Source: a bacterium (lineage in GTDB: Bacteria; Patescibacteriota; Minisyncoccia; Phycocordibacterales; UBA2100). From it: a stretch of DNA of 64,000 nucleotides. Position numbers and translations under genes: made by a program. The DNA lies in the NCBI GenBank assembly GCA_016789445.1, contig JAEUQT010000001.1, positions 131,603 through 195,602 on the forward strand. The letters run 5' to 3'. This document shows positions 2,697 to 60,168 of this stretch, piece by piece. The notes below the pieces were generated by a model. That model did not search any database, was not told the origin of the DNA, and worked only from the letters and a program-made list of their open reading frames with translations. Every line of letters begins with the position of its first letter. Positions within the stretch are counted from its first letter, which is position 1.

Positions 2697-4487
2697 CTAG
2701 TTTCCTTCGCGCTTTGCCTTTGCTGCTGCGCTTTCGGTGAGATAGATCTTTCGCAGACGTACGCTCTCAGGAGTGACTTCGAGGTATTCATCCTTCTGCA
2801 TGAGCTCCAATCCGCGCTCGATGGAGAGCTCGTATGCCGGGACGAGATTGATGGCATCGTCGGTACCGGACGAACGCACGTTCGTGAGGTTCTTCCCCTT
2901 CGTCGGATTCACGTACATTTCGTCGCCCTTGGAGGTATCGCCGATGACCTGGCCTTCGTACACTTCGGTTCCCGGCGTGATGAAAAGACGGCCGCGATCC
3001 TGGAGATTCCAGAGCGAGAAGCCCAAGGCTTTTCCGGTCGCCATGGAAACCATCGAGCCCTGTGCACGGCGACGGATCTCTCCCGCGAACGGACGGAAGC
3101 CGATGACGCGTGCCGCGATGATACCCTCACCCTTCGTATCGATGATGAACTGGTTGCGGTAACCGAGAAGACCACGGGTCGGACCTTCGAAGATGAGACG
3201 CACCGTCGCTTCGTGGACGAGCATGTTGGTCATCTGGAAACCACGAGTACCGAGCTTTTCGATGACGGCGCCTTGGTATTCAGACGGGATATCGACGACG
3301 ACTTCTTCGAACGGCTCTTTCTTGACGCCCTCCTCTTCCTTCACGATGACCTGCGGCTGTGAGACCTGCATCTCGAAACCTTCACGGCGCATGTTCTCAA
3401 GGAGGATCGCGATATGGAGTTCGCCGCGACCAGAGACCTGGAAATTATCCGGCGACTGGAAGTCGACTTTGAGACCGACGTTGATCTCGAGCTCCTTCTC
3501 AAGGCGATCACGAAGCTGGCGCGAAGTGACGTACTTACCTTCGCGTCCGCCGAACGGAGAATTGTTGACGAGGAAGCTGAGTGTAATCGTCGGCTGATCG
3601 ACGGCGATTGCCGGAAGCGTCTCGACGTTGGCATCAGTCGTGACGGTCTCGCCGATTTCGATATCAGGCACGCCCGCGATGATGCAGATGTCTCCCGGTC
3701 CGACTTCCGTCGCTTCGACACGCTTGAGGCCCGTGAACGTGAACATCTTAGTGATCTTGCCGCTGCGGGTCTCTCCTGTAGGCTTCTTTACGAAGATGCT
3801 GCCGCCGGTCTTCAAAGTACCTTCGTACACGCGGCAGACCGCGAGGCGGCCGAGGAAGTTGTCGTACGCGAGGTTGAACGGCTGTGCGCGAAGTGCGGAA
3901 TCAGCAGACGCATTGGAGGCTACCGGAACCTTCTCAAGGATCATGTCGAGGAGCGGCGTGAGATCCTTGCGTTCATCATCGAGTTTGCGCATCGCGACAC
4001 CTTCGCGGCCGATGGCATACATGACCGGAAACTCTGCCTGCTCATCGGATGCGCCGAGCTCCAAGAAGAGTTCCAAGACCTGATCTTCTGCGCGAGCCGG
4101 ATCTGCGGCCGGCTTGTCGATCTTATTGAGGACGACGATCGGCTTGAGGCCGAGCTCGAGCGACTTCTTCAAGACGAATCGCGTCTGCGGCATCGGGCCT
4201 TCCTGCGCATCGACGACGAGAAGGACGCTGTCGATGGAGCGGAGCACGCGTTCGACCTCGGAACCGAAGTCAGCGTGGCCCGGCGTGTCAACGATGTTGA
4301 TCTTGGTACCCTTGTATTCCACCGAGGCATTCTTGGCGTAGATGGTGATGCCGCGCTCCTGTTCGAGCTTATTGGAGTCCATGGAAACCCCCTCCTCCGC
4401 TGCCCCGGTCTGCTTCAGGATGGCATCGGTAAGGGTCGTCTTCCCGTGGTCGACGTGGGCGATGATGGCGATGTTGCGGATTTCCAT
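2697..4487 (-). CDS. typA: translational GTPase TypA/BipA
   Basis: ORF 2697..4574. Start set at [19 protein letters not shown] (G1 motif). DTPGHADF and NKID motifs are present, and the length and C-terminal region match BipA. Confidence 0.95.
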
Positions 4488-16253: not shown

Positions 16254-16596
16254 TTAAGAAAGCTCGAAACCTAAAATGCCTTTAGCTTCTATTTTCTCGA
16301 GATATCGAGGGTATGAGGCATATCGATTCTTCACCTGCTCAACGGTAAGCAATCCTGGCATCACTTTTGCAATCGGAACCTCGGCAAGCATCGCCTCAAC
16401 TGTGGGCCAGAAATAAATTTTCCGGACTTTTCTTGAGAACGAATCGCTCCCGCAGATGAACTGGATATCGTCTCCTTCTTTATATTGAAGAGTGCTGCTC
16501 ATTAACGGCTCGTGTCTCTACACTTTTGAGCCCGCTCTTGATTTCATCAAAGCGAGCGCGGTCTACCTCCCTGAATTCTAGATTGTGAATTTCCAT
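16254..16596 (-). pseudogene. ASCH-domain gene split by a 1-nt frameshift
   Basis: The upstream 38-codon frame from the ATG at 16594-16596 (MEIHNLEFREVDRARFDEIKSGLKSVETRAVNEQHSSI*) and ORF 16254..16502 (MSSTLQYKEGDDIQF...GILGFELS) are in different frames. Together they reconstruct one ~113-aa ASCH-like protein. Confidence 0.55.
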
Positions 16597-16610
16597 ATTA
16601 CATGCGAGTA

Positions 16611-16747
16611 CGCCAGACAAGGATACTTTGGAAACCCTCGGTTTTCCAACGGTCGCCGAAGCGACCTGCCTTCCGACACGGGGAACTCCCGTTCCCCGAC
16701 CCCCTCCCTATCCAAGTCTGGCAACAAATCTCGTTGCACTCAATTTG
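16611..16747 (-). repeat. tRNA-trailing element, subfamily 2 (after tRNA-Gln)
   Basis: It shares gaaaccctcggttt and cttccgacacgg[hairpin]ccgacccctccc with the copy at 21842-21989. An inverted copy of the tRNA 3' end (16712-16729) forms an 18-bp hairpin with 16743-16760. A degenerate direct copy (cgccagacaaggat) lies at 16611-16624. Confidence 0.7.
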
Positions 16748-21841: not shown

Positions 21842-21989
21842 ACGGTCCGGGATTTCACTGCTCGCCGTATTCTCGGCTGCGCTTTCGAAACCCTCGGTTT
21901 CGAATAACTTCCGACACGGAGGGGGTCCGGTGGGTCCCCCTCCGACCCTCCCCCGTTCAATCCCGGTCGGGCCTCTCGCTACGCTCGTG
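21842..21989 (-). repeat. tRNA-trailing element, subfamily 2 (after tRNA-Thr GGU)
   Basis: Same conserved blocks as 16611-16747. The inverted copy gttcaatcccggtcg (about 21953-21967) is complementary to the tRNA T-arm/acceptor. The degenerate direct copy acggtccgggatt lies at 21842-21854. Confidence 0.7.
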
Positions 21990-26352: not shown

Positions 26353-26370
26353 CTCTCTATTCTATCGTAG

Positions 26371-26539
26371 TGTCGAGGGTGGGGGTCGGTCACGAATAAT
26401 TTCTGTCCCGTCGGACAGAAATTTTCGCGACCCCGGCTCGCGGTCTCGCCTGCTGGCGAGACATCGCTCCGCCTTTCGACCCCCACACGCTGTGTGCGCA
26501 GGCACACAGCCCTCGACACAAATCCACTTCGTATATTTG
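26371..26539 (-). repeat. tRNA-trailing element, subfamily 1 (after tRNA-Met)
   Basis: The 18-nt direct repeat tgtcgagggtgggggtcg occurs at 26371-26388 and 26540-26557. Core hairpins lie at 26388-26432 and 26443-26462. The inverted copy is cgacccccac (26477-26486) + hairpin + cctcgaca (26511-26518). Confidence 0.85.
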
Positions 26540-26613
26540 TGTCGAGGGTGGGGGTCGAACCCACGACCTTGGCTTTATGAATGCCACGCTCTAACCAACT
26601 GAGCTACCCCGAC
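26540..26613 (-). tRNA. tRNA with CAU anticodon (elongator Met, or Ile2 if lysidinylated)
   Basis: GTCGGGG TA GCTC AGTTGGTTA GAGC G TGGCA TTCATAA AGCCA AGGTC GTGGG TTCGACC CCCAC CCTCGAC A. It has a 31:39 A-A mismatch. Confidence 0.85.
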
Positions 26614-27143: not shown

Positions 27144-27165
27144 GGCGGTAGTATGCCATATGTAC

Positions 27166-27425
27166 GCAGGGCGGGCTTGGTCAAGAACATTTCTTGCTTC
27201 CGTCGAAGCAAGAAATTTCTCGGCCCTGATGTTGCGGGGGCGGGCTTGGTCACGGATAATCTTCGCGCCGTCGCGCGAAGATTTCCGCGACCCCGGCTCG
27301 CGGTTTCGCCCACTGGCGAAACATCGCTCCGCCTTGCAAGTCCAGCACGAAAAGCGCACCGGCGCTTTTCTCCCCGCGACTGCACAAACACAAAACCGCC
27401 CGTACGGCGGCTTTGTGTTTGCTTG
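27166..27425 (-). repeat. tRNA-trailing element, subfamily 1, tandem (one short plus one full copy; after initiator-like tRNA)
   Basis: The direct copy gttgcgggggcggg at 27231-27244 matches 27425-27438. A second degenerate copy gcagggcgggcttg lies at 27166-27179. The core hairpin P-a is at 27303-27322. The inverted copy is tgcaagtcc + hairpin + ccccgc, and a terminator hairpin lies at ~27391-27415. Confidence 0.85.
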
Positions 27426-27497
27426 TTGCGGGGGCGGGACTTGCACCCGCGACCTCCAGGTTATGAGCCTGGCGAGCTACTACTGCTCCACCCCGCT
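27426..27497 (-). tRNA. tRNA-Met (CAU), initiator-like, with non-canonical D- and T-loops
   Basis: A GCGGGG TG GAGC AGTAGTA GCTC G CCAGG CTCATAA CCTGG AGGTC GCGGG TGCAAGT CCCGC CCCCGCA A. It has a 1:72 A-A mismatch, no GG in the D-loop, and G at T-loop position 55. Confidence 0.75.
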
Positions 27498-43746: not shown

Positions 43747-44412
43747 ATGCTCGGCCTCTTCTCCAGGGCTGCCGCATCCATCCAGACGCTGCTCGACATC
43801 GTCCTGCCGCGTAACGAGCGCGTGATCCGCGCCGACGCGTACACTCTTGAGGATATTGCGGTCAATCCGCAGGTTCACGAAGCGTCCCGCATCGCGATCA
43901 CCACACTGCTCTCCTATCGCGATACGGTGGTCGAAGACCTGATACGTGCGGTCAAATATGACGGATCCCGACATGCCGCTGGACTGCTTGCCGAGGTGCT
44001 TGCCGAATACCTTCGGGAGGAAATCGCTTCCCTGCACGCCTTCTCGACGCGATCGATCATCCTCATCCCGCTGCCTCTCCATGTACGACGCGCACAAGAG
44101 CGCGGATTCAATCAGATCGCATTCATCATGGAACAGCTCCCGGAGGAATTCCGGGACGGATCACTCGCGCGGATCGAACATGACGCACTCATGCGCATCC
44201 GTGAGACGAGACCGCAGACGCGTCTCACACGCGCCGAGCGGCTCGTCAATGTAAAAGACGCTTTCGCGGTGCGCGACATCGCGGCAGCCCTTGATTGTCA
44301 CGCCTTCGTCATCGATGACGTGACGACAACGGGGGCCACCCTCGCCGAAGCTGTGCGTCCGTTACAGGGACTCAATATACCGGTGAGTCCGCTCGCGTTA
44401 GCAAAAGCCTAG
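43747..44412 (+). CDS. comF: ComF-family phosphoribosyltransferase-like competence protein
   Basis: RAQERGFNQ and the VIDDVTTTGATL PRTase motif. Confidence 0.85.
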   Translation: MLGLFSRAAASIQTLLDIVLPRNERVIRADAYTLEDIAVNPQVHEASRIAITTLLSYRDTVVEDLIRAVKYDGSRHAAGLLAEVLAEYLREEIASLHAFSTRSIILIPLPLHVRRAQERGFNQIAFIMEQLPEEFRDGSLARIEHDALMRIRETRPQTRLTRAERLVNVKDAFAVRDIAAALDCHAFVIDDVTTTGATLAEAVRPLQGLNIPVSPLALAKA

Positions 44413-44415
44413 AAT

Positions 44416-44585
44416 TGCGGAGAGGGAGGGATTCGGTCACGGATAATTTTCTGCTGAAAATTTCCGCGACCCCGCCTCGTCGCCTACGCTCCTGCGACTT
44501 TCGAATCCCTCCGTTTCGCTATGCGAAACCGCCACCCTTTCGGGCGGCGCTCTCCGCAAAAAACTTGCGGGTCTCGTTTTTTTTG
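44416..44585 (-). repeat. tRNA-trailing element, subfamily 1 (after tRNA-Ser) - clearest exemplar
   Basis: The 20-nt direct repeat tgcggagagggagggattcg occurs at 44416-44435 and 44584-44603. The hairpin GGTCACGGATAATTTTC tgct GAAAATTTCCGCGACC lies at 44435-44471. The inverted copy is ttcgaatccctcc + two small hairpins + ctctccgc. Confidence 0.88.
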
Positions 44586-44674
44586 CGGAGAGGGAGGGAT
44601 TCGAACCCTCGAGACAGTTTGACCCGCCTAACACGTTAGCACCGTGCCGCCTTCGACCACTCGGCCACCTCTCC
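44586..44674 (-). tRNA. tRNA-Ser (anticodon GCU), long variable arm
   Basis: GGAGAGG TG GCC GAGTGGTCGAA GGC G GCACG GTGCTAA CGTGT + variable arm + GAGGG TTCGAAT CCCTC CCTCTCC G. Confidence 0.9.
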
Positions 44675-44708
44675 TTCGTTCGCTACCCTACCATAAAACC
44701 GCGCCGTT

Positions 44709-45338
44709 TTATACCGCTTTCGCCCCCTCACGCGCATGCATCTCTAGTGAGAGGATGCATCCCTCGGCATCAATCTCATAGATGCGCGCCTCGGCAACAC
44801 CGATTTCCACCTGCGCGACCTCGCGGTCATCCAGATCCTCGAGATGACGCATGAGTGCTCGAAGCGAATTGCCATGCGCGACGATGAGCACATTCTTTCC
44901 CTCTTCGATGACAGGAAGTATGGAATTCACGTAGTACGGCACCACGCGATCATAGACATCCTTCAGCGATTCCCCTTCCGGAATCGGCACATCCCAGCCG
45001 CGACGCAGTCTCTGGAAGGCTTCCTCGCCGATCTCATCGCGGACTTCCCACTTGTTCTTTCCCGTGTAGGTGCCGTAATTGCGTTCATTGAGCGCTTCGT
45101 GCGCGATCGTCGGGAGGTTCGTGATACCGAGCTTCTCTTTCAGCTTACGGAGCGTCTCCGACGCGCGGCGGAGCGTAGAAGTGAACGCCGCGTGATACTC
45201 GATCTCAGGAAGCCGTTCGGCAAGGATCGCTACCTCCTCATCGGCGTGCGCGGAGAGCCCGACATCACGCCAGCCGGTCCACATACCTTTAGCGTTCCAC
45301 TCCGATCGGGCGTGGCGCACGAGAACAAGCTGCGCCAT
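44709..45338 (-). CDS. gpmA: histidine-phosphatase family, 2,3-bisphosphoglycerate-dependent phosphoglycerate mutase-like
   Basis: LVLVRHARSEWN...TGW.D..LS and HGNSLRAL motifs. At 209 aa it is shorter than typical GpmA. Confidence 0.75.
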   Translation of the reverse strand: MAQLVLVRHARSEWNAKGMWTGWRDVGLSAHADEEVAILAERLPEIEYHAAFTSTLRRASETLRKLKEKLGITNLPTIAHEALNERNYGTYTGKNKWEVRDEIGEEAFQRLRRGWDVPIPEGESLKDVYDRVVPYYVNSILPVIEEGKNVLIVAHGNSLRALMRHLEDLDDREVAQVEIGVAEARIYEIDAEGCILSLEMHAREGAKAV

Positions 45339-50982: not shown

Positions 50983-51148
50983 GTCACGGATAATTCAATG
51001 AGTGTCAATATCGAGTCCCCAGGGATAATTTTGTCGCCGTCGCTCCAAAATTTCCCCGGGCCTGGCTCGCGGTCGCGCGTACTCGCGCGACATCGCTCCG
51101 CCTCGGACCAGTAAACAAAAACAGCGCTCAATGCGCTGTTTTTGATTC
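50983..51148 (-). repeat. tRNA-trailing element, subfamily 1 (after tRNA-Ile), no distal direct repeat
   Basis: GTCACGGATAAT at 50983. There is an inner hairpin CCCAGGGATAATTTTG..CAAAATTTCCCCGGG, P-a GTCGCGCG tact CGCGCGAC (51072-51091), catcgctccgcc, and a short inverted match ggaccag. A bidirectional terminator ACAGCGC tcaat GCGCTGT lies at ~51121-51139. Confidence 0.8.
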
Positions 51149-51225
51149 TGGTCCGCCCTCTTGGATTCGAACCAAGGACCGCAAAGGTATAAGCTTTGTG
51201 CTCTAACCAACTGAGCTAAGGGCGG
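51149..51225 (-). tRNA. tRNA-Ile with genuine UAU anticodon, CCA encoded
   Basis: CCGCCCT TA GCTC AGTTGGTTA GAGC A CAAAG CTTATAC CTTTG CGGTC CTTGG TTCGAAT CCAAG AGGGCGG A CCA. Confidence 0.85.
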
Positions 51226-56346: not shown

Positions 56347-56730
56347 GGGGATGATTGGCTTCGACAGGGAGATCGATGCATATACATGCATGGCGGAAGT
56401 GGGTATCTTCCCAAAAACACCCAAACTCTAAGTGCAAACAAAACTGCACGGGGGGTTCTCTCGCCTATTCAGGTGAAGGACCTCGGCTTTGCTTTCGCGT
56501 AAGCCAAGGCAACCGTTCGTTCAGAGGTCTCCAATACTCTGATGCGAGCGTCATATCATTGGATACGGCTTCCCTATCACACCGTAGGTTAGTCTAAAGA
56601 AAGAGTGTCCGACGCGAAGCGATCTTGTGCGTTCCATACTCTCCGCGTTCAAAACCTTTGAACGCCCTACGCCTTGTAGATGTGTGTATGCGTTTCTCTT
56701 TGCACCGCGGTTCGATTCCGCGCATCTCCA
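56347..56730 (+). ncRNA. ssrA: tmRNA (SsrA)
   Basis: The 5' GGGGATGATTGGCTTCGACAGGGA pairs with the 3' ...GCGG TTCGATT CCGCG CATCTCC A (G3-U70). The tag frame 56434-56499 encodes ANKTARGVLSPIQVKDLGFAFA, then TAA. No encoded CCA. Confidence 0.93.
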
Positions 56731-56921
56731 CAGCCAATGCAAGCCGCCTTCCAGGCGGCTTTTGCATTTGCATTGCGACGGTGGAGATGAAGAAAGCGCC
56801 TGCGCGCTTTCTGCGGGGGTCTCGAAAGGCGGAGCGCTGTTCCGACAGCAGGCGGAACCGCGAGCCGGGGTCGCGGAAATTCAAAGGCGACGGCGTTTGA
56901 ATTATCTGTGACCGATTCCGC
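56731..56921 (+). repeat. trailing element, subfamily 1 (after tmRNA)
   Basis: Terminator AAGCCGCC ttcca GGCGGCTT TT (56741-56765). Inverted copy GGTGGAGATG + hairpin + GCGGGGGTCTCGAA. Core AGGCGGAGCGCTG, P-a 56839-56858, CCGCGAGCCGGGGTCGCGGAAAT...ATTATCTGTGAC (ends 56912). The direct copy cgattccgc at 56913-56921 matches 56713-56721. Confidence 0.85.
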
Positions 56922-56972
56922 CGCCGATATTCCTTCATGCAACCTTATGTGTTTTGATACGTCCACTGAGAT

Positions 56973-58298
56973 ATGCCGAAGCGATACTGGTGGAAGGATG
57001 CGAAGATATACGAGCTCTACGTCGATCGCTTCGCGGGGAATTTCCAGAACCTGACGGCACAATTGGATTACCTGGAGCGTCTTGGCATCAACGCACTCCA
57101 CATCCTCCCCCACTACCCGTCGCCCATGGCCGATGGCGGCTATGACGTGATGGAATATCTCAACGTCCGGCCGGAACTCGGCACGATCGAGGATTTCGAT
57201 ACCTTCCTCAAAGAAGCGCACCGCCGCGATATCAAAGTCATCATCGACTTCGTCCTCAATCACGTCTCAGAACATCATCCTTGGTTCTTGGAGGCGCGAT
57301 CATCGAAAGACAACAACAAGCGCGATTACTTTTTATGGAGCGAGAGCGGACACGAACTCGCCCTCGGTTGGAATGCCTTCCCCGACATCAAGCCTGGCAA
57401 TTGGATATTCAACGAAGAGACGCAGGACTACTACTATGCGACCTTCTATCCGCAGCAGCCGGATCTGAATTGGGACAATCCGGAAGTCTTCGCAAGCATG
57501 ATGCAGAACATGGATTTCTGGGCCGGCCGCGGCGTGGACGGCTTCCGCTTGGACGCAGCGGTGACGCTCATCAAACGAGACGGCACGCTCTCGAAAGGAT
57601 TGCCGGAAACGCACCAGCTCATCAAACGCATCCGCAAACACTTGGACACGAAATTCGGCGGCGAGATCGTCCTTCTTGCTGAAGCGCATCAGCACGTCAA
57701 AGAGATGAAGACGTATTTCGGGGACGGCGACGAATGCCATCTCGTGTACCATTTCTCACTCACCGAGCAGCTCTTCCTCGCTCTTATGCGCAATGATCGC
57801 ACCGAACTCGATGCGATGCTTGAGGAATCACGCGACATCCCGGAGAACTGCCAGTGGGCGATCTTTCTGCGCAATCACGACGAACTCTCGCTCGCGACAC
57901 TCGCCCCTGAAGTACGCACCGAGCTCATCACCTATCTTGATCCGAAGAGCGAATATCTTTTCAATGGCGGCGCAGCGACCGCCAAGAGGTTGGGCAGCAT
58001 GTTCGACGAAGCGAAGCTGCGCGAAGCGATTTCTCTCCTCTACTCGCTTCCGGGGGCGCCTATCATGTACTACGGCGACGAGATCGGCATGCAGAATCTT
58101 CCACGTACGGAAGGCGTGATCGACAGCCGCGTGTACGTCCGCGGTGAATTCGATTGGCTTGAGGCCGGGCTGCAGCGCAGTGATCCTGATTCCCTCTACA
58201 ACTTCACGAAGGGTGTCATCCGTAAATCACTCTGGCCATATAAGCGGGATTTCAATTCACCTCCCCCAGAAGAGGGATCGCCAAGCGACGACGAGTAG
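56973..58298 (+). CDS. GH13 alpha-amylase-family glycosidase (trehalose-synthase/amylosucrase-like N-terminal and catalytic domains)
   Basis: WWKDAKIYELYVDRF, GYDV.DY, DFVLNH, GFRLDA and the LLAE...NHD motif series. Confidence 0.85.
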   Translation: MPKRYWWKDAKIYELYVDRFAGNFQNLTAQLDYLERLGINALHILPHYPSPMADGGYDVMEYLNVRPELGTIEDFDTFLKEAHRRDIKVIIDFVLNHVSEHHPWFLEARSSKDNNKRDYFLWSESGHELALGWNAFPDIKPGNWIFNEETQDYYYATFYPQQPDLNWDNPEVFASMMQNMDFWAGRGVDGFRLDAAVTLIKRDGTLSKGLPETHQLIKRIRKHLDTKFGGEIVLLAEAHQHVKEMKTYFGDGDECHLVYHFSLTEQLFLALMRNDRTELDAMLEESRDIPENCQWAIFLRNHDELSLATLAPEVRTELITYLDPKSEYLFNGGAATAKRLGSMFDEAKLREAISLLYSLPGAPIMYYGDEIGMQNLPRTEGVIDSRVYVRGEFDWLEAGLQRSDPDSLYNFTKGVIRKSLWPYKRDFNSPPPEEGSPSDDE

Positions 58299-59556
58299 TC
58301 TCACCTTTGAAGAGTTGCCGCGTCCGCTCCGGCATGTCTCCTCGCTCGCCAAGATGCGCGCCGAATTTCATCGCCTGGAAACTCGAACCGAGGAAGACTG
58401 CGTGTTTACCGTATCGTTCCGATATCGCATCCACGCTCTCGAACACCATCTTCAATCCTTGGGATTCTTCCACTTTGCCGAAAAGATCGAGCTGAAGACT
58501 GTCCGCGGGGCGCAGCTGCGCGAGGGTCACGCCGCTCGCACGATACAGCTTCCCGTTCTCGAAAACCTGCGGGAAGAATTTAGCGACCTCGCGCAGGACA
58601 TCCTGCGGGACATTCGTGGGGTGCGGGAGCTTCACTTCGATACCGTGGTATCTGAAATCCTGTGTCTTGAGAAAGAAGAACACGCGATCACTCGCGAGAT
58701 TCCATCGGCGCGCCTTGATGCACGCATTCTCGACATTTTTGGAGAGCTGACTGAAGATAAACTTCGCATCGCGCAATGGTGGCGTGAAGGTCTTGGTCTT
58801 CTGGATGCTCTGGTAGCTGGTCTTCTTTTCCGTCGTGAGTGGATAGATGGCTTCGCCATTGAGCTCCCGCCAGATCTCCTGCACCGGCTTCGAAACTTTC
58901 GCACGCACCCATGGTTCGTTCTTGCGCGCAAAATCGAGCGCGCTCTGAATACCGAACTTATTGAGATACGCCGCAGTGTTTGGCCCGATCCCCCATACAT
59001 TCCCTACCGGCAGCTTTCCGAGAAATTTTGATGCGTCGCTGAGCGGTATCGAGGTGAGACCATCAGGCTTCTTCCATTTCGAACCGACCTTCGCCAGGAC
59101 TTTCGTCGCCGAGAGACCCACACTGAACGTGATGCCGAGCTTCACCTGCAGCTCCTGCTTAATGGAATGCGCCATGTCGTGGTAGTTCATCCGATTCACG
59201 CGGCGCATACCGGTGAGGTCCGCGAAGCATTCATCAATGGAATACTCCTCGACGGCAGGCGTGTAGCGACGCACGATCTCGTACATACGCTCTGAATATA
59301 GACTGTAGGTCTCGTAATCCGACGGCAGCACGATCGCATCTGGGCACGCTTCAAGAGCTTCGCTTAATTTGACCCCGCGCTTCACGCCGCGACGCTTCGC
59401 CTCGTAGGTGCACGCAGAGACGATGCCGCGCTCTTTGCCGGTGATGACCGGCTTACCGCGCAGCTTTGGATTCTTTGCCACTTCGACTGCAGCAAAGAAA
59501 GAGTCACCATCCACGTGCAGGATGGCTCTGGGATACGAGTATGACTTACCCCACAT
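58252..59556 (-). CDS. dinB: Y-family DNA polymerase IV
   Basis: ILHVDGDSFFAAVE, SIDECFADLTG and SVGLSATKVLAK motifs. It converges on and overlaps the GH13 gene by 47 nt. Confidence 0.93.
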   Translation of the reverse strand: MWGKSYSYPRAILHVDGDSFFAAVEVAKNPKLRGKPVITGKERGIVSACTYEAKRRGVKRGVKLSEALEACPDAIVLPSDYETYSLYSERMYEIVRRYTPAVEEYSIDECFADLTGMRRVNRMNYHDMAHSIKQELQVKLGITFSVGLSATKVLAKVGSKWKKPDGLTSIPLSDASKFLGKLPVGNVWGIGPNTAAYLNKFGIQSALDFARKNEPWVRAKVSKPVQEIWRELNGEAIYPLTTEKKTSYQSIQKTKTFTPPLRDAKFIFSQLSKNVENACIKARRWNLASDRVFFFLKTQDFRYHGIEVKLPHPTNVPQDVLREVAKFFPQVFENGKLYRASGVTLAQLRPADSLQLDLFGKVEESQGLKMVFESVDAISERYGKHAVFLGSSFQAMKFGAHLGERGDMPERTRQLFKGETTRRRLAIPLLGEVN

Positions 59557-59576
59557 AGGCCATGTACGTCCGGACT

Positions 59577-59635
59577 GTCACGGATAATTTTCTGCTGAAA
59601 ATTTCCGCAACCCCGCCTCGACACCTAAAGTGTCT
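59577..59635 (-). repeat. solo partial copy of the subfamily-1 core (no tRNA adjacent)
   Basis: GTCACGGATAATTTTCTGCTGAAAATTTCCGCAACCCCGCCTCG differs at one base over 44 nt from the Ser-linked copy at 44436-44479. It lies 20 nt upstream of the dinB start. Confidence 0.8.
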
Positions 59636-59682
59636 CCGGCCTTGCGAAGCTCCATGTATTCGCTTCTCACCCCAGACCATAG

Positions 59683-60168
59683 CTACCTGAACTTAAGCGT
59701 GTAGGCTGGCTTGAATGCAGGAAGTGGTGCGTACCGCGAAGTGCGTGGTAGCGGCGTCCGCATGCGTGATGGCCGGATCTGTTTCGCAGGCTTTACCGGA
59801 TTCGTCTCGGCAAGAAATTCCATGACCGCGAGATTCACCGTAGCGAATTGCCGATCACTGATGCGACCGAGACGACGGATAAGCTGGTCCTTCCGCAGCA
59901 TGCGCATCTGCGAAAGGGTTCCGGTGCGGTTCGCACCCTTGAGTGACGTAAGAAAATAAAACGGGGTTTCCTTACCGCTCGCACGCGACGTAAGCGGCAA
60001 TCCCCAGAACGTATCGGTACCGAGCGTACGGAACACCAAGACCGGCCTCTCAGCTGCAGCGTCGGTTGCCGAAGGCACCGAACACCACCAGATATCCTGC
60101 GCACGATATTTCACTTCTCGTACGCGCGCTGTCTTCTTCGAAAAAATGTGGGAAAGCTGTTTAAACAT
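59683..60168 (-). CDS. MazF/PemK-family toxin-like protein with basic C-terminal tail
   Basis: DIWWCSV......ERPVLVF.......FWGLPLTS.........F......G...TLSQMRMLRKDQLIRRLG.IS...F matches the solitary PemK-like pattern. Confidence 0.7.
   Translation of the reverse strand: MFKQLSHIFSKKTARVREVKYRAQDIWWCSVPSATDAAAERPVLVFRTLGTDTFWGLPLTSRASGKETPFYFLTSLKGANRTGTLSQMRMLRKDQLIRRLGRISDRQFATVNLAVMEFLAETNPVKPAKQIRPSRMRTPLPRTSRYAPLPAFKPAYTLKFR

Follow-up and report, generated by a model that had tools for sequence, protein, structure and literature searches.

The 168-bp unit behind the tRNA-Ser gene of the window (the whole 64-kb stretch of DNA analysed here) is probably one copy of an insertion cassette that is specific to Patescibacteria (CPR), is neither coding nor autonomous and regenerates the end of the gene it enters. 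Such a cassette sits in the 3' portion of a conserved gene (for this copy, in tRNA-Ser at the T-loop) and carries the intact gene end (DR1) at one edge. DR1 is followed by an element-specific trailer, which holds a terminator hairpin in many copies, and then by X', a short complement of the first bases of the repeat. Distally stands a structured core (P2 and P3) ending in GTGAC, followed by the second repeat, DR2, which pairs with X' and closes a three-way junction. All the segments that an earlier note on this DNA had described for the Ser copy (repeat, complements, hairpins and core) were located on the minus strand, and the parts are as follows.

44585..44674, minus: intact tRNA-Ser(GCT), the host (target) gene (ARAGORN; Rfam tRNA model, 54.7 bits)
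44583..44603, minus: DR1, CGAATCCCTCCCTCTCCGCAA, from the T-loop to 2 nt beyond the discriminator and within the functional tRNA; regenerated target end (sequence, repeat search, empty-site alignment)
44558..44582, minus: element-borne trailer, from an A-run to a T-run (sequence)
44550..44557, minus: X'a, GCGGAGAG, which complements the 3' strand of the acceptor together with the discriminator and the C after it
44513..44549, minus: two small hairpins, GCCGCCC-GAAA-GGGTGGC and TTTCGC-ATA-GCGAAA (sequence, fold)
44502..44512, minus: X'b, GGAGGGATTCG, which complements the first bases of the repeat and forms the 5' strand of the closing helix P1
44436..44501, minus: core as a whole
44499..44501, minus: junction J1/2 (AAA)
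44474..44498, minus: P2, short form: GUC/GGC at the base, next a GCA/GA internal loop, then a stem that contains tandem G.A pairs and is capped by a GUAG loop
44471..44473, minus: junction J2/3 (GGG), invariant in the collected copies by construction, as it was set by the search pattern
44436..44470, minus: P3, GUCGCGGAAAUUUUC-AGCA-GAAAAUU(A)UCCGUGAC, with a never-varying G.U pair and a bulged A; the GTGAC at its 3' end marks the boundary of the element
44415..44435, minus: DR2, displaced copy of the tRNA 3' end and 3' strand of P1 (empty-site alignment; BLAST break points 44435/44583)

The inserted unit contains no ORF; the 21-nt repeat delimits it, and its coordinates are either 44436..44603 or 44415..44582. 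The native trailer of tRNA-Ser begins right after DR2. On the plus strand the element-borne trailer reads as a terminator-like hairpin with a T-run, facing the convergent comF gene. No minus-strand terminator lies between tRNA and core, so the Ser core may be co-transcribed with its tRNA. The two small hairpins stand where other copies have an H1 hairpin or a terminator module.

Filled and empty sites were compared among close relatives taken from Logan assemblies. A conspecific contig (L129/L122), 97.4-99.5% identical to the window, is without exactly 44436..44582 and one copy of the repeat, and its tRNA-Ser continues as ...CTCTCCGCAATACTAGGCTTTTGC, the sequence that stands after DR2 in the window. 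The junction reads ...CTCTCCGCAAAAAAAACGAG at the filled site and ...CTCTCCGCAAT(A/T)CTAGGC at the empty one. The regenerated target and the displaced fragment lie at the two ends of the insert, as they also do at topA and rplL ends, a logic described for tDNA islands (PMC4383910). Four more assemblies stop exactly at the tRNA-Ser 3' end, and L130, 99.06% identical to the window, has the unit with its acceptor-like part deleted. Of the relatives whose GpmA is 77-84% identical, L125, L126, L135, L136 and L138 have no cassette, and L134 has at the same tRNA a different variant with long-form P2 and P3 and another hairpin. From these alignments we infer that the cassette was gained recurrently at tRNA-Ser; precise loss via the 21-bp repeat, rather than gain, could account for part of the filled/empty polymorphism. 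The Ser copy changes at least as fast as its flanks, with 3 substitutions in 148 nt and an indel against a background of 0.94%. A circular or tandem form, which is hypothetical, would be expected to show the junction ...CCGTGAC-CGAATCCCTCCCTCTCCGCAA-AAAAAACGAG.

The family, whose core motif sequences are GGGGTCGCGRAAAT...ATTATYYGTGAC, was found on at least 120 Patescibacteria contigs. A tRNA or tmRNA gene on the same strand, of many isoacceptor types, lies directly upstream in 87 of 127 copies, and the insertion points in tRNA genes are the T-loop and the 3' terminus. Williams is said to have named these two places, in 2002, as the classic sublocations of tyrosine integrases in tRNA genes. Protein genes are entered as well: three copies lie in the 3' end of topA, where the last ~22 codons (KTIPERCSNK...) occur both before and after the cassette in two versions that differ, and two in rplL, where KVTFK* occurs twice; by ORF clustering, topA adjoins the core at four loci in all. 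The flanking repeat duplicates the end of the host gene and was 7-8 nt long in the shortest cases and 25 nt or more in the longest. No conserved terminus marks the left end, and the inverted segment X' changes with the target. A MITE was rejected, as conserved terminal inverted repeats are absent and the repeat length is not fixed. Terminators between gene end and core were present in at least 28% of copies compared with 4% of control windows, and tandem arrays and decayed distal remnants also occur. Copies inside one genome are as divergent as copies between genomes, with the structure kept by compensatory change. Target-specific core lineages did not show, as cores grouped by neither target nor anticodon (identity 0.559 vs 0.547, p = 0.39), but saturation of the signal may make this comparison a weak one.

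What the copies have in common is a three-way junction made up of the closing helix P1 (6-10 bp), P2 and P3, with a core of 63-90 nt and junction strands RAA, GGG and none (alignments A2 and A3). P1 is composed of whichever sequence stands at the insertion point, and the acceptor-like extension is not conserved across the family. The region holds a real, non-random structure, which bears out part of the earlier note's reading: P2, P3 and the junction-proximal closing helix are supported by covariation among 94 homologues. In the 59 long-form copies 85.3% of cells were paired and the covariation score was 0.455, compared with 0.181 in shuffles (reached by 0 of 500) and at most 0.146 with slid partners; the 35 short-form copies gave 86.4% and 0.321 vs 0.135. 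P1 was evaluated by duplex energies with permutation controls and was copy-specific (p = 5e-8 and 9e-7); a count of contiguous pairs is too harsh here, because many copies start P1 with G.A pairs. The sense strand folded better in all 115 of 115 cores (-34.1 vs -23.6 kcal/mol; 255 G.U pairs), covariance-model matches reached at most 21 bits on the antisense strand against 31-122 bits on the sense strand, and the core always has the orientation of the upstream gene. Selection acts on the fold of a single strand, which is the host gene's sense strand. The family shows the strand-specific fold, maintained by compensatory change, that marks a folded att site. The G.U pairs, tandem G.A pairs and tetraloops suit RNA at least as well as single-stranded DNA (ssDNA).

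The other copies in the window are listed below, with their covariance-model scores.

26370..26557, minus: Met copy, unit of 169 nt, 122.5 bits; DR1 26557..26539 in tRNA-Met (26613..26539), GTGAC end at 26389, DR2 26388..26370
27161..27424, minus: copy behind a second tRNA-Met (27497..27425), with a terminator after the tRNA, 115 bits; core 27346..27239, DR2 27248..27230
27226..27180, minus: P3-like hairpin of an older remnant after the preceding copy, with a decayed third repeat, 21.1 bits
56734..56921, plus: copy behind the tmRNA (56347..56733), 105.8 bits; core 56815..56922, repeat reduced to 9 nt (CGATTCCGC, 56913..56921)
51008..51115, minus: copy behind tRNA-Ile(UAU), 93.7 bits
25735..25844, minus: degenerate copy behind tRNA-Asp, then the repeat CGAGTCCCGTCACTC, 31.4 bits
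59569..59648, minus: copy not adjoining a tRNA, after a PemK/MazF-like gene (60168..59683) and before dinB, 41.3 bits

Seven of the nine tRNA/tmRNA genes of the window have a family-1 or family-2 copy, and Rfam at gathering thresholds matched only the eight tRNAs and the tmRNA across the whole window. In the Ile copy all pairs of the P3 base (CCCGGGG/CCCTGGG) are changed save the retained G.U pair. This copy is less divergent than its flanks, with 1 difference in 331 nt against a background of ~2.6%. Competence and type IV pilus genes are present in CPR genomes, this window included.

An unlikely alternative is a host-serving cis-acting RNA, namely a structured 3' module made by read-through of the upstream tRNA or mRNA and selected in place as a processing signal, exonuclease block, fail-safe terminator or protein-binding platform. 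Such a module would pass between genomes by ordinary homologous recombination only, with the duplicated gene end as its right-hand homology arm, and the competence and pilus genes would favor this route. The invariable placement on the sense strand of the upstream gene, the strong covariation with its RNA-like features (the never-varying G.U pair, tandem G.A pairs, tetraloops), the occupancy of seven of nine genes, the within-genome copies that are old yet structurally intact and the slowly changing Ile copy all speak for it. Nevertheless, it is opposed by the presence or absence of the cassette among conspecific genomes and its patchiness in relatives, by the rate of change of the Ser copy, by the terminators that frequently stand upstream of the core and by X', which in a co-transcript would, by prediction, capture the 3' strand of the tRNA itself and whose match to each target it does not account for. 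The conservation of the Ile copy and the diverged, structure-keeping copies fit selection in place (host-level function) and selection for mobility alike. The insertion cassette, which we prefer, likewise gives no account of how X' became a perfect 20-nt complement of each target despite the interrupting hairpins.

The earlier note had suggested that the Ser and Met copies resemble a tRNA-like minihelix RNA (acceptor plus T arm) and could serve RNase P, the CCA-adding enzyme, an aminoacyl-tRNA synthetase or tRNA-targeting nucleases as substrate or decoy. We give very little credence to this model, also when RNase Z and tRNA-targeting toxins are counted among the possible partners. The fold it drew was indeed the minimum-free-energy structure when each copy was folded alone, with -88.5 kcal/mol for Ser (shuffles -50.5 +/- 4.2; z -9.0) and -91.3 kcal/mol for Met (z -9.6), and DNA parameters also gave it (-52.9 kcal/mol, z -8.2). 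The Met copy also matched its description, with GTCGAGG in the element vs GTCGGGG in the tRNA. With the upstream tRNA included, however, the minimum-free-energy fold was a different one: the internal complement paired with the 3' strand of the real tRNA in a helix of ~32 bp, lengthened by A6/T6 runs, and the terminal copy paired with the tRNA 5' acceptor strand. The acceptor strand and discriminator claimed for the 3' end are present in DR2 but paired, with no free discriminator or NCCA-like end. In a minihelix the discriminator would be unpaired and the 3' end would extend freely beyond an acceptor/T stack of 12 bp; here pairing extends over the discriminator and one or two trailer bases (GC-GGAGAG / CTCTCC-GC in Ser, likewise in Met), and the acceptor/T-type helix is broken by one or two hairpins in both copies.

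Whether further copies keep complementarity where the host tRNA differs was a check set by the note. The complement does track the host tRNA sequence (p = 0.0055 for T-loop-anchored and 0.048 for 3'-terminus copies), but the acceptor-like helix is not a feature of the family: it is weakly copy-specific (p = 0.03 vs the terminal repeat) and deleted in L121/L130, a relative 99.06% identical over 15.6 kb. Mimicry of a tRNA as the purpose of the structure is not supported: the terminal repeat is a fragment displaced from the target gene, the conspecific contig has the empty site, and the same junction is closed elsewhere by non-tRNA sequence, such as CACAAA/TTTGTG at tRNA 3' termini and topA or rplL codons. 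Nor did the proposed resemblance to a tRNA or the tmRNA tRNA-like domain appear in the Rfam tRNA and tmRNA models (RF00005, RF00023; clan CL00001); with cmscan at E <= 10 over 44380..44700, the real tRNA-Ser was the sole tRNA/tmRNA match, with none in 44415..44584. The tRNA-like fold is a by-product and the mimicry incidental, since the acceptor/T-arm look of the Ser copy arises solely because its target happens to be a tRNA 3' end. The fallback reading of the note, that the inverted repeats are DNA-level recombination arms, lies nearer to the evidence, the recombination itself being a proposed step.

No mobility protein is encoded inside or beside the cassette. When the 1131 ORFs lying up to 4 kb to either side of 120 loci were clustered all against all, no mobility-protein family was enriched, the families there being housekeeping ones (SmpB, FtsH, IF2, MurE, RuvA, TopA, RplL, ComF and the CCA-adding enzyme), and Pfam detected no recombinase, transposase or reverse transcriptase in 50 of the 64 selected ORFs of the window. 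Rfam at E <= 10 returned tRNAs only for the Ser and Gln regions, apart from chance-level matches such as Deinococcus Y RNA (15.9 bits). The cassette has no Rfam family, and full-text literature searches gave no description of it. The core motif had 0 matches in 2.9 million viral contigs and BLAST against phage and plasmid collections gave no match, so a phage or plasmid origin was dropped. The same searches bear on the view of the unit as the scar of ordinary integrase-mediated phage or island integration, that is, an attL/attR remnant left by internal deletion of a larger element. This view would account for the T-loop and 3'-end insertion points, and for the regenerated target with its displaced fragment (PMC4383910), yet at least 120 contigs have this same ~100-nt core, complete at its boundaries and free of coding remnants, and we hold the scar view to be highly improbable.

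Several known classes of element were also considered and rejected. A group I intron splits its gene, has a P3-P9 core of at least 200 nt and is modelled in Rfam as Intron_gpI, whereas here the upstream tRNA needs no splicing to be complete, the core measures 63-90 nt and Rfam gave no match. Introns of this group occur commonly in tRNA genes of Patescibacteria (PMC13011429). Small self-cleaving ribozymes (hammerhead, twister, pistol, hatchet, HDV-like, hairpin) had no Rfam match at E <= 10, and a hammerhead or kink-turn reading of the GSA/GA loop misfits the junction strands and bulge lengths (alignments A2 and A3). IS200/IS605 derivatives (PATE) and TnpB/IscB omega RNAs were excluded by the absence of a match to Rfam, whose models for them are IS605-orfB and HEARO, the absence of any such protein near the loci and the presence of flanking repeats. 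Kinship with TIGR-Tas or bridge RNA was rejected because the TIGR architecture, 36-nt tandem units beside Nop-domain genes (PMC12045711), does not fit the cassette.

A programmable mechanism, RNA-guided in a bridge-RNA-like or dual-guide manner, appears improbable to us. In it, X' and X of the transcript would flank a protein-binding core, base-pair with the two strands at the end of the target gene and guide a recombinase or nuclease encoded in trans to that place. It draws on the fit of X' and X to each separate target (tRNAs, tmRNA, topA, rplL), on the cores ungrouped by target and on the conserved, strand-specific core, which may resemble a protein-binding scaffold. It is weakened by the lack of a candidate effector near the 120 loci or in the window, by the pairing of X' and X with one another in the predicted fold, by the terminators upstream of the core and by the lack of likeness to Rfam bridge, TIGR or omega RNA families, TIGR arrays being built differently.

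For the insertion cassette we propose the following mechanism. DR1 would be brought in by the cassette and DR2 would be the original gene end, displaced; this reading follows from the diverged topA copies and from decay confined to DR2, the two origins being indistinguishable where the repeat is perfect. Repeated gain would occur by recombination at the GTGAC|X boundary, probably on a folded single strand, either ssDNA or, less likely, RNA. With P3 stacked on the X'/X helix, the fold would form an att-like site whose outer arm imitates the target duplex, by analogy with the folded attP of CTX phage or integron attC. A putative recombinase encoded elsewhere, possibly a host enzyme, would act on the folded strand. 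A further-reaching version, which we offer only tentatively, is a so far undescribed class of protein-less homing element. In this version, ~100 nt of folded ssDNA or RNA with a target copy and an anti-copy would constitute a structure-defined, retargetable att site (or a dual guide), and a trans-encoded, possibly universal CPR enzyme would insert the cassette in the 3' ends of the most conserved genes and rebuild them, a change of X'/X alone sufficing to retarget it.

If the cassette reading is true, many CPR bacteria have a structured cassette, selfish or semi-domesticated, behind most of their tRNA genes, and current annotation misses it. The cassette would then account for partial duplicates of tRNAs and gene ends, for breaks in CPR metagenome assemblies at the 3' ends of tRNAs and for part of the intergenic DNA in very small CPR genomes. 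Among insertion elements it would be a natural example of one that encodes the match to its target in a short paired segment beside a conserved scaffold. The trans-acting enzyme, if found, could give a compact, retargetable integration system; if no such enzyme exists, the element would be one that spreads in naturally competent bacteria with conserved genes as homology arms. In either case, tRNA-like paper folds beside tRNA genes can be integration scars rather than mimics.

Among known systems, the tRNA-like domains (tmRNA, viral tRNA-like structures, mascRNA) share with the Ser copy 8-bp and 11-bp helices built from a true acceptor/T 3' strand, but the Ser copy has no T-loop, a paired discriminator and no CCA, and the mimicry is absent from most family members and not maintained. 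MITEs (Correia, RUP), BOX and REP/REPIN elements with RAYT are likewise small, non-coding, structured, intergenic and multi-copy, and can carry terminators and depend on trans factors. Unlike these elements, the cassette has no conserved terminal inverted repeats and is flanked, instead of by a fixed-length target-site duplication, by a copy of the host gene end that is 7 to more than 30 nt long; its copies within a genome are highly diverged but co-varying and its insertion is gene-end specific. In tDNA islands and prophages with tyrosine integrases (Islander; PMC4383910), the target is split, the inserted DNA restores the gene and the displaced fragment lies at the far end, as in the cassette. 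Both insert at the T-loop or 3' terminus, and successive insertions accumulate at one gene. The cassette differs in its size of 100-170 bp without integrase or cargo, in its internal inverted target copy and strand-specific three-way junction, and in the use of one core family at dozens of targets, including the protein genes topA and rplL. With CTX attP(+) (XerCD) and integron attC it shares the use of one strand only and of structure over sequence, functional in those systems and a predicted fold here, as well as an inverted partner of the target-like sequence that gives a duplex by folding, and target-like sequence that flanks the element after insertion. It differs from them in having no dif-like arms and no R boxes (RYYYAAC/GTTRRRY), in an outer helix that is the host gene end and varies per copy, in a P2 branch that interrupts the hairpin, and in that its ssDNA form and recombinase are putative. 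In CTX phage the recombinase is supplied in trans by the host, which may be the case for the cassette as well.

The 168-bp structured insertion at the 3' end of tRNA-Ser (the cassette) lies on the minus strand, with the following layout:

44674..44585, minus strand: tRNA-Ser(GCT)
44603..44583, minus strand: first copy (DR1) of the repeat CGAATCCCTCCCTCTCCGCAA, the last 19 nt of tRNA-Ser plus two trailer bases
First segment between the repeat copies, minus strand: A-run/T-run trailer
44557..44550, minus strand: GCGGAGAG, after the trailer
Between GCGGAGAG and GGAGGGATTCG, minus strand: two small hairpins
44512..44502, minus strand: GGAGGGATTCG, 3' of the hairpins
After GGAGGGATTCG, minus strand: 66-nt core, with its GTGAC end at 44440..44436
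44435..44415, minus strand: second repeat copy (DR2)

These segments follow the order listed in the earlier note, and the tRNA-Met counterpart has the identical plan, with GTCGAGG in the element against GTCGGGG in the tRNA, as described there. The structure drawn in that note is the minimum-free-energy fold of the Ser and Met copies alone, about 9 standard deviations below shuffles. It changed when the upstream tRNA was included in the fold: the internal complement then paired preferentially with the 3' strand of the tRNA itself, and the terminal copy with the tRNA 5' strand. Because of this preference, and because the element helix extends over the discriminator and one or two bases beyond it, the proposed tRNA-like minihelix or decoy is unlikely. 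Among the genes read closely, tRNA-Ser (44585), both tRNA-Met (26539, 27425) and tmRNA (56347..56733) encode no CCA, and CAA follows the discriminator in tRNA-Ser and both tRNA-Met.

The gene directly upstream of tRNA-Ser encodes GpmA, and contigs encoding GpmA at 97% identity are of two kinds. L130, which is 99.06% identical to the window across 15.6 kb, has the unit; the acceptor half of its DR2 is gone, leaving CGAATCCCTC alone. L129 (97.4-99.5% identity to the window) is without exactly 44436..44582 plus one repeat copy, so the 168-bp unit is an indel with the repeat at its borders. Its tRNA-Ser runs on into the sequence found after DR2 in the window, which makes DR2 and the following sequence the native tRNA end and trailer. 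Four further assemblies stop exactly at the tRNA-Ser 3' end, as expected at an assembly-graph branch. The last bases of tRNA-Ser are where contigs from independent Logan assemblies of this species terminate (L131, L132, L133, L124, L123), and metagenome assemblies of Patescibacteria (CPR) are likely to break systematically because of the cassettes. More distant relatives are patchy: five are without the cassette and L134 has a clearly different variant at tRNA-Ser (long-form P2 and P3 helices, another hairpin), which speaks for separate gains and against one ancestral copy. Compared with window 44585..44720, the complete tRNA-Ser unit of L134-L138 (77-84% GpmA identity), made up of a promoter-like leader and the gene, has the opposite orientation with respect to gpmA and comF; inverted tRNA-end copies within cassettes could mediate such inversions.

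Aligned copies share the order X' - 3-nt joiner - P2 - GGG - P3 - X, where X' and X form the closing helix P1 of a three-way junction. P2 leads from a G-N-C/G-N'-C base through a GSA/GA internal loop into the stem, which carries an AU bulge and AGYA loop in the long form; P3 reads GUCGCGR-AAAU...AUU(A)U-YYGUGAC. Across the 59 long-form copies, 85.3% of cells were paired, both sides had changed in 482 cells against 165 in shuffles, and the covariation score was 0.455 against 0.181 shuffled (reached by 0 of 500; slid partners at most 0.146). The short form (35 copies, the Ser copy among them) was 86.4% paired, with covariation of 0.321 against 0.135. The search pattern had fixed part of P3, but neither P2 nor P1. 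The sense strand was stabler in all 115 cores (-34.1 against -23.6 kcal/mol), its folds containing 255 G.U pairs; one G.U pair is invariant, and the Ile copy keeps it while all other P3-base pairs differ. A loop (A)CUGC(UU) is frequent in the hairpin that precedes X' (e.g. L016, L032, L054, L071, L098; window 26487..26510, 56790..56812). It is complementary to the AGCAG loop carried by P2 in the long form or by P3 in the short form, and judged from this complementarity a loop-loop contact is possible. The short and long forms also seem to have the AGCA-type and GACG-type loops swapped between P2 and P3.

The window has five occurrences of the core motif (at most 1 mismatch), and a pattern scan over one genome per GTDB species matched at least 120 contigs. 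Patescibacteria made up nearly all of the 80 titles among the matches listed, with Saccharibacteria, Paceibacterota, Kaiser-, Adler-, Nomura-, Zambryski- and Taylorbacteria represented. A same-strand tRNA or tmRNA end, of almost any isoacceptor type, lies 46-250 nt upstream of 87 of the 127 copies. A covariance model trained on 59 copies found seven copies and one remnant in the window, each copy on the strand of the preceding gene (tRNA-Met, a second tRNA-Met, tmRNA, tRNA-Ile, tRNA-Ser, tRNA-Asp and a mazF-like gene). The copy away from tRNA (59569..59648, minus strand) has on one side a PemK/MazF-like toxin gene (60168..59683), which lies downstream of a gene for a LexA-like S24 peptidase, and on the other dinB (59556..58252); its conserved hairpin loop, GCGAAUACUUGGAGC, also occurs in the L036, L045 and L048 copies. 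A tRNA-Ile with anticodon UAU lies at 51149..51225. L030 (CAZRVE010000018.1, a Saccharibacteria MAG) has, about 85 nt upstream of its cassette, an ARAGORN tRNA with anticodon UUA (reading UAA, 'tRNA-Stop'), which may represent a suppressor tRNA or an erroneous call. No Rfam family matched the cassette, no copy was found in viral contigs, phage records or plasmid records, and full-text literature searches yielded no description of it. No mobility gene was linked to it within 4 kb on either side of 120 loci or among 50 window ORFs; a prophage scar is an unlikely explanation.

Many copies are anchored at the extreme tRNA end (X CACAAA/X' TTTGTG; CAAATAG/CTATTTG), and their P1 is not tRNA-like. 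The topA 3' end holds a cassette in three genomes, the last ~22 codons (KTIPERCSNK...stop) standing before it and again, diverged or decaying, directly after GTGAC; the end of rplL (KVTFK*) is likewise duplicated around the cassette in two genomes. Near the junction, P1 is specific to its copy whichever the anchor type (p = 9e-7 and 5e-8); further out, the acceptor-like part shows hardly any such specificity (p = 0.03 in one anchor type, not significant in the other), and the complement tracks the end of the upstream tRNA to a certain extent (p = 0.0055 and 0.048). Non-tRNA closing helices, protein-gene copies and P1 specificity thus identify the three-way junction as the conserved object, and P1 is built from any sequence at the insertion point. 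Given the same helices and gene copies and the weak specificity of the acceptor-like part, tRNA likeness is incidental: fold and covariation sustain the structured element of the earlier note, but not its tRNA minihelix. An RNA-guided, retargetable insertion mechanism is possible.

Cassettes lie within the 3' ends of conserved genes, with an intact gene-end copy on the upstream edge and a second copy behind GTGAC. Because the topA versions have diverged and DR2 decays, the upstream copy would be element-borne and the downstream one the displaced original. In 28% or more of the copies, compared with 4% of control windows, a terminator-like hairpin separates gene end and core, and the second Met copy has one; the Ser cassette has a plus-strand terminator facing comF. 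Copies pile up in tandem, older remnants being distal. Behind the second tRNA-Met cassette, a P3-like hairpin AGAAATTTCTTGCTTCGACGGAAGCAAGAAATGTTCTTGACC and a decayed third tRNA-end copy (27161..27226, minus strand) indicate serial insertion at one gene. A host-serving cis-acting RNA, possible in that copies within a genome are diverged yet structurally intact and the Ile copy is unusually conserved, sits uneasily with strain-level presence and absence, the fast change of the Ser copy, terminators upstream of the core, and a co-transcript predicted to trap the tRNA 3' strand.

Other insertions lie near tRNAs. A second cassette family follows tRNA-Gln and tRNA-Thr(GGU) (window 16590..16746 and 21860..21988, both minus strand; also L043, L059). 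It has a different core, GGGGGTCGGGGAAC..GTTCCCCGTGTCGGAAGG...GGAAAACCGAGGGTTTCC, and no Rfam match; like the first family it opens with 15-16 nt perfectly complementary to the tRNA 3' end and closes with a decayed copy of that end, and its first hairpin (GUCG..CGUGUC) resembles family-1 P3. On the 5' side of tRNA-Ser, L125 (~3166..3330; also L126-L128, L136, L138) carries a ~166-nt insertion that mirrors the 3' cassette: the initial 18 nt of tRNA-Ser (GGAGAGGCGGCCGAGTGG) are duplicated upstream, followed by a terminator-like hairpin, and another small cassette thus seems to target tRNA 5' ends. The motif (G)AGCGTAGCGA / AGCGAACGAAG(TGAGT) recurs in the tRNA-Ser 5' leader (window 44675..44690, minus strand) and just 3' of the regenerated tRNA end (L006, L018, L033, L099, L106; window ~21970..21985), in L106 within a 29-nt repeat.

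We favour the reading that the folded single strand would serve as an att site for a trans-encoded recombinase, because the structure appears selected on one strand, an upstream terminator is frequent, and the cassette would hold an inverted partner of the target start, P3 stacked on X'/X giving a continuous duplex across the junction. The perfect extended complement of the Ser and Met copies might, speculatively, be kept through template-switch correction of the hairpin in which it pairs with the functional tRNA end. Spread within species by homologous exchange would be enzyme-free; CPR bacteria, the window's included, carry competence and pilus genes. Tyrosine integrases insert into tRNA genes at the T-loop and the 3' terminus, and the cassette insertion points match these. 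Folded single-strand att sites are known from CTX phage attP and integron attC, analogues for the proposed mode. The cassette adds a new, widespread and non-coding variant to the theme of integrative elements that regenerate their target; tDNA islands (PMC4383910) follow the same logic of a regenerated target and a displaced fragment.
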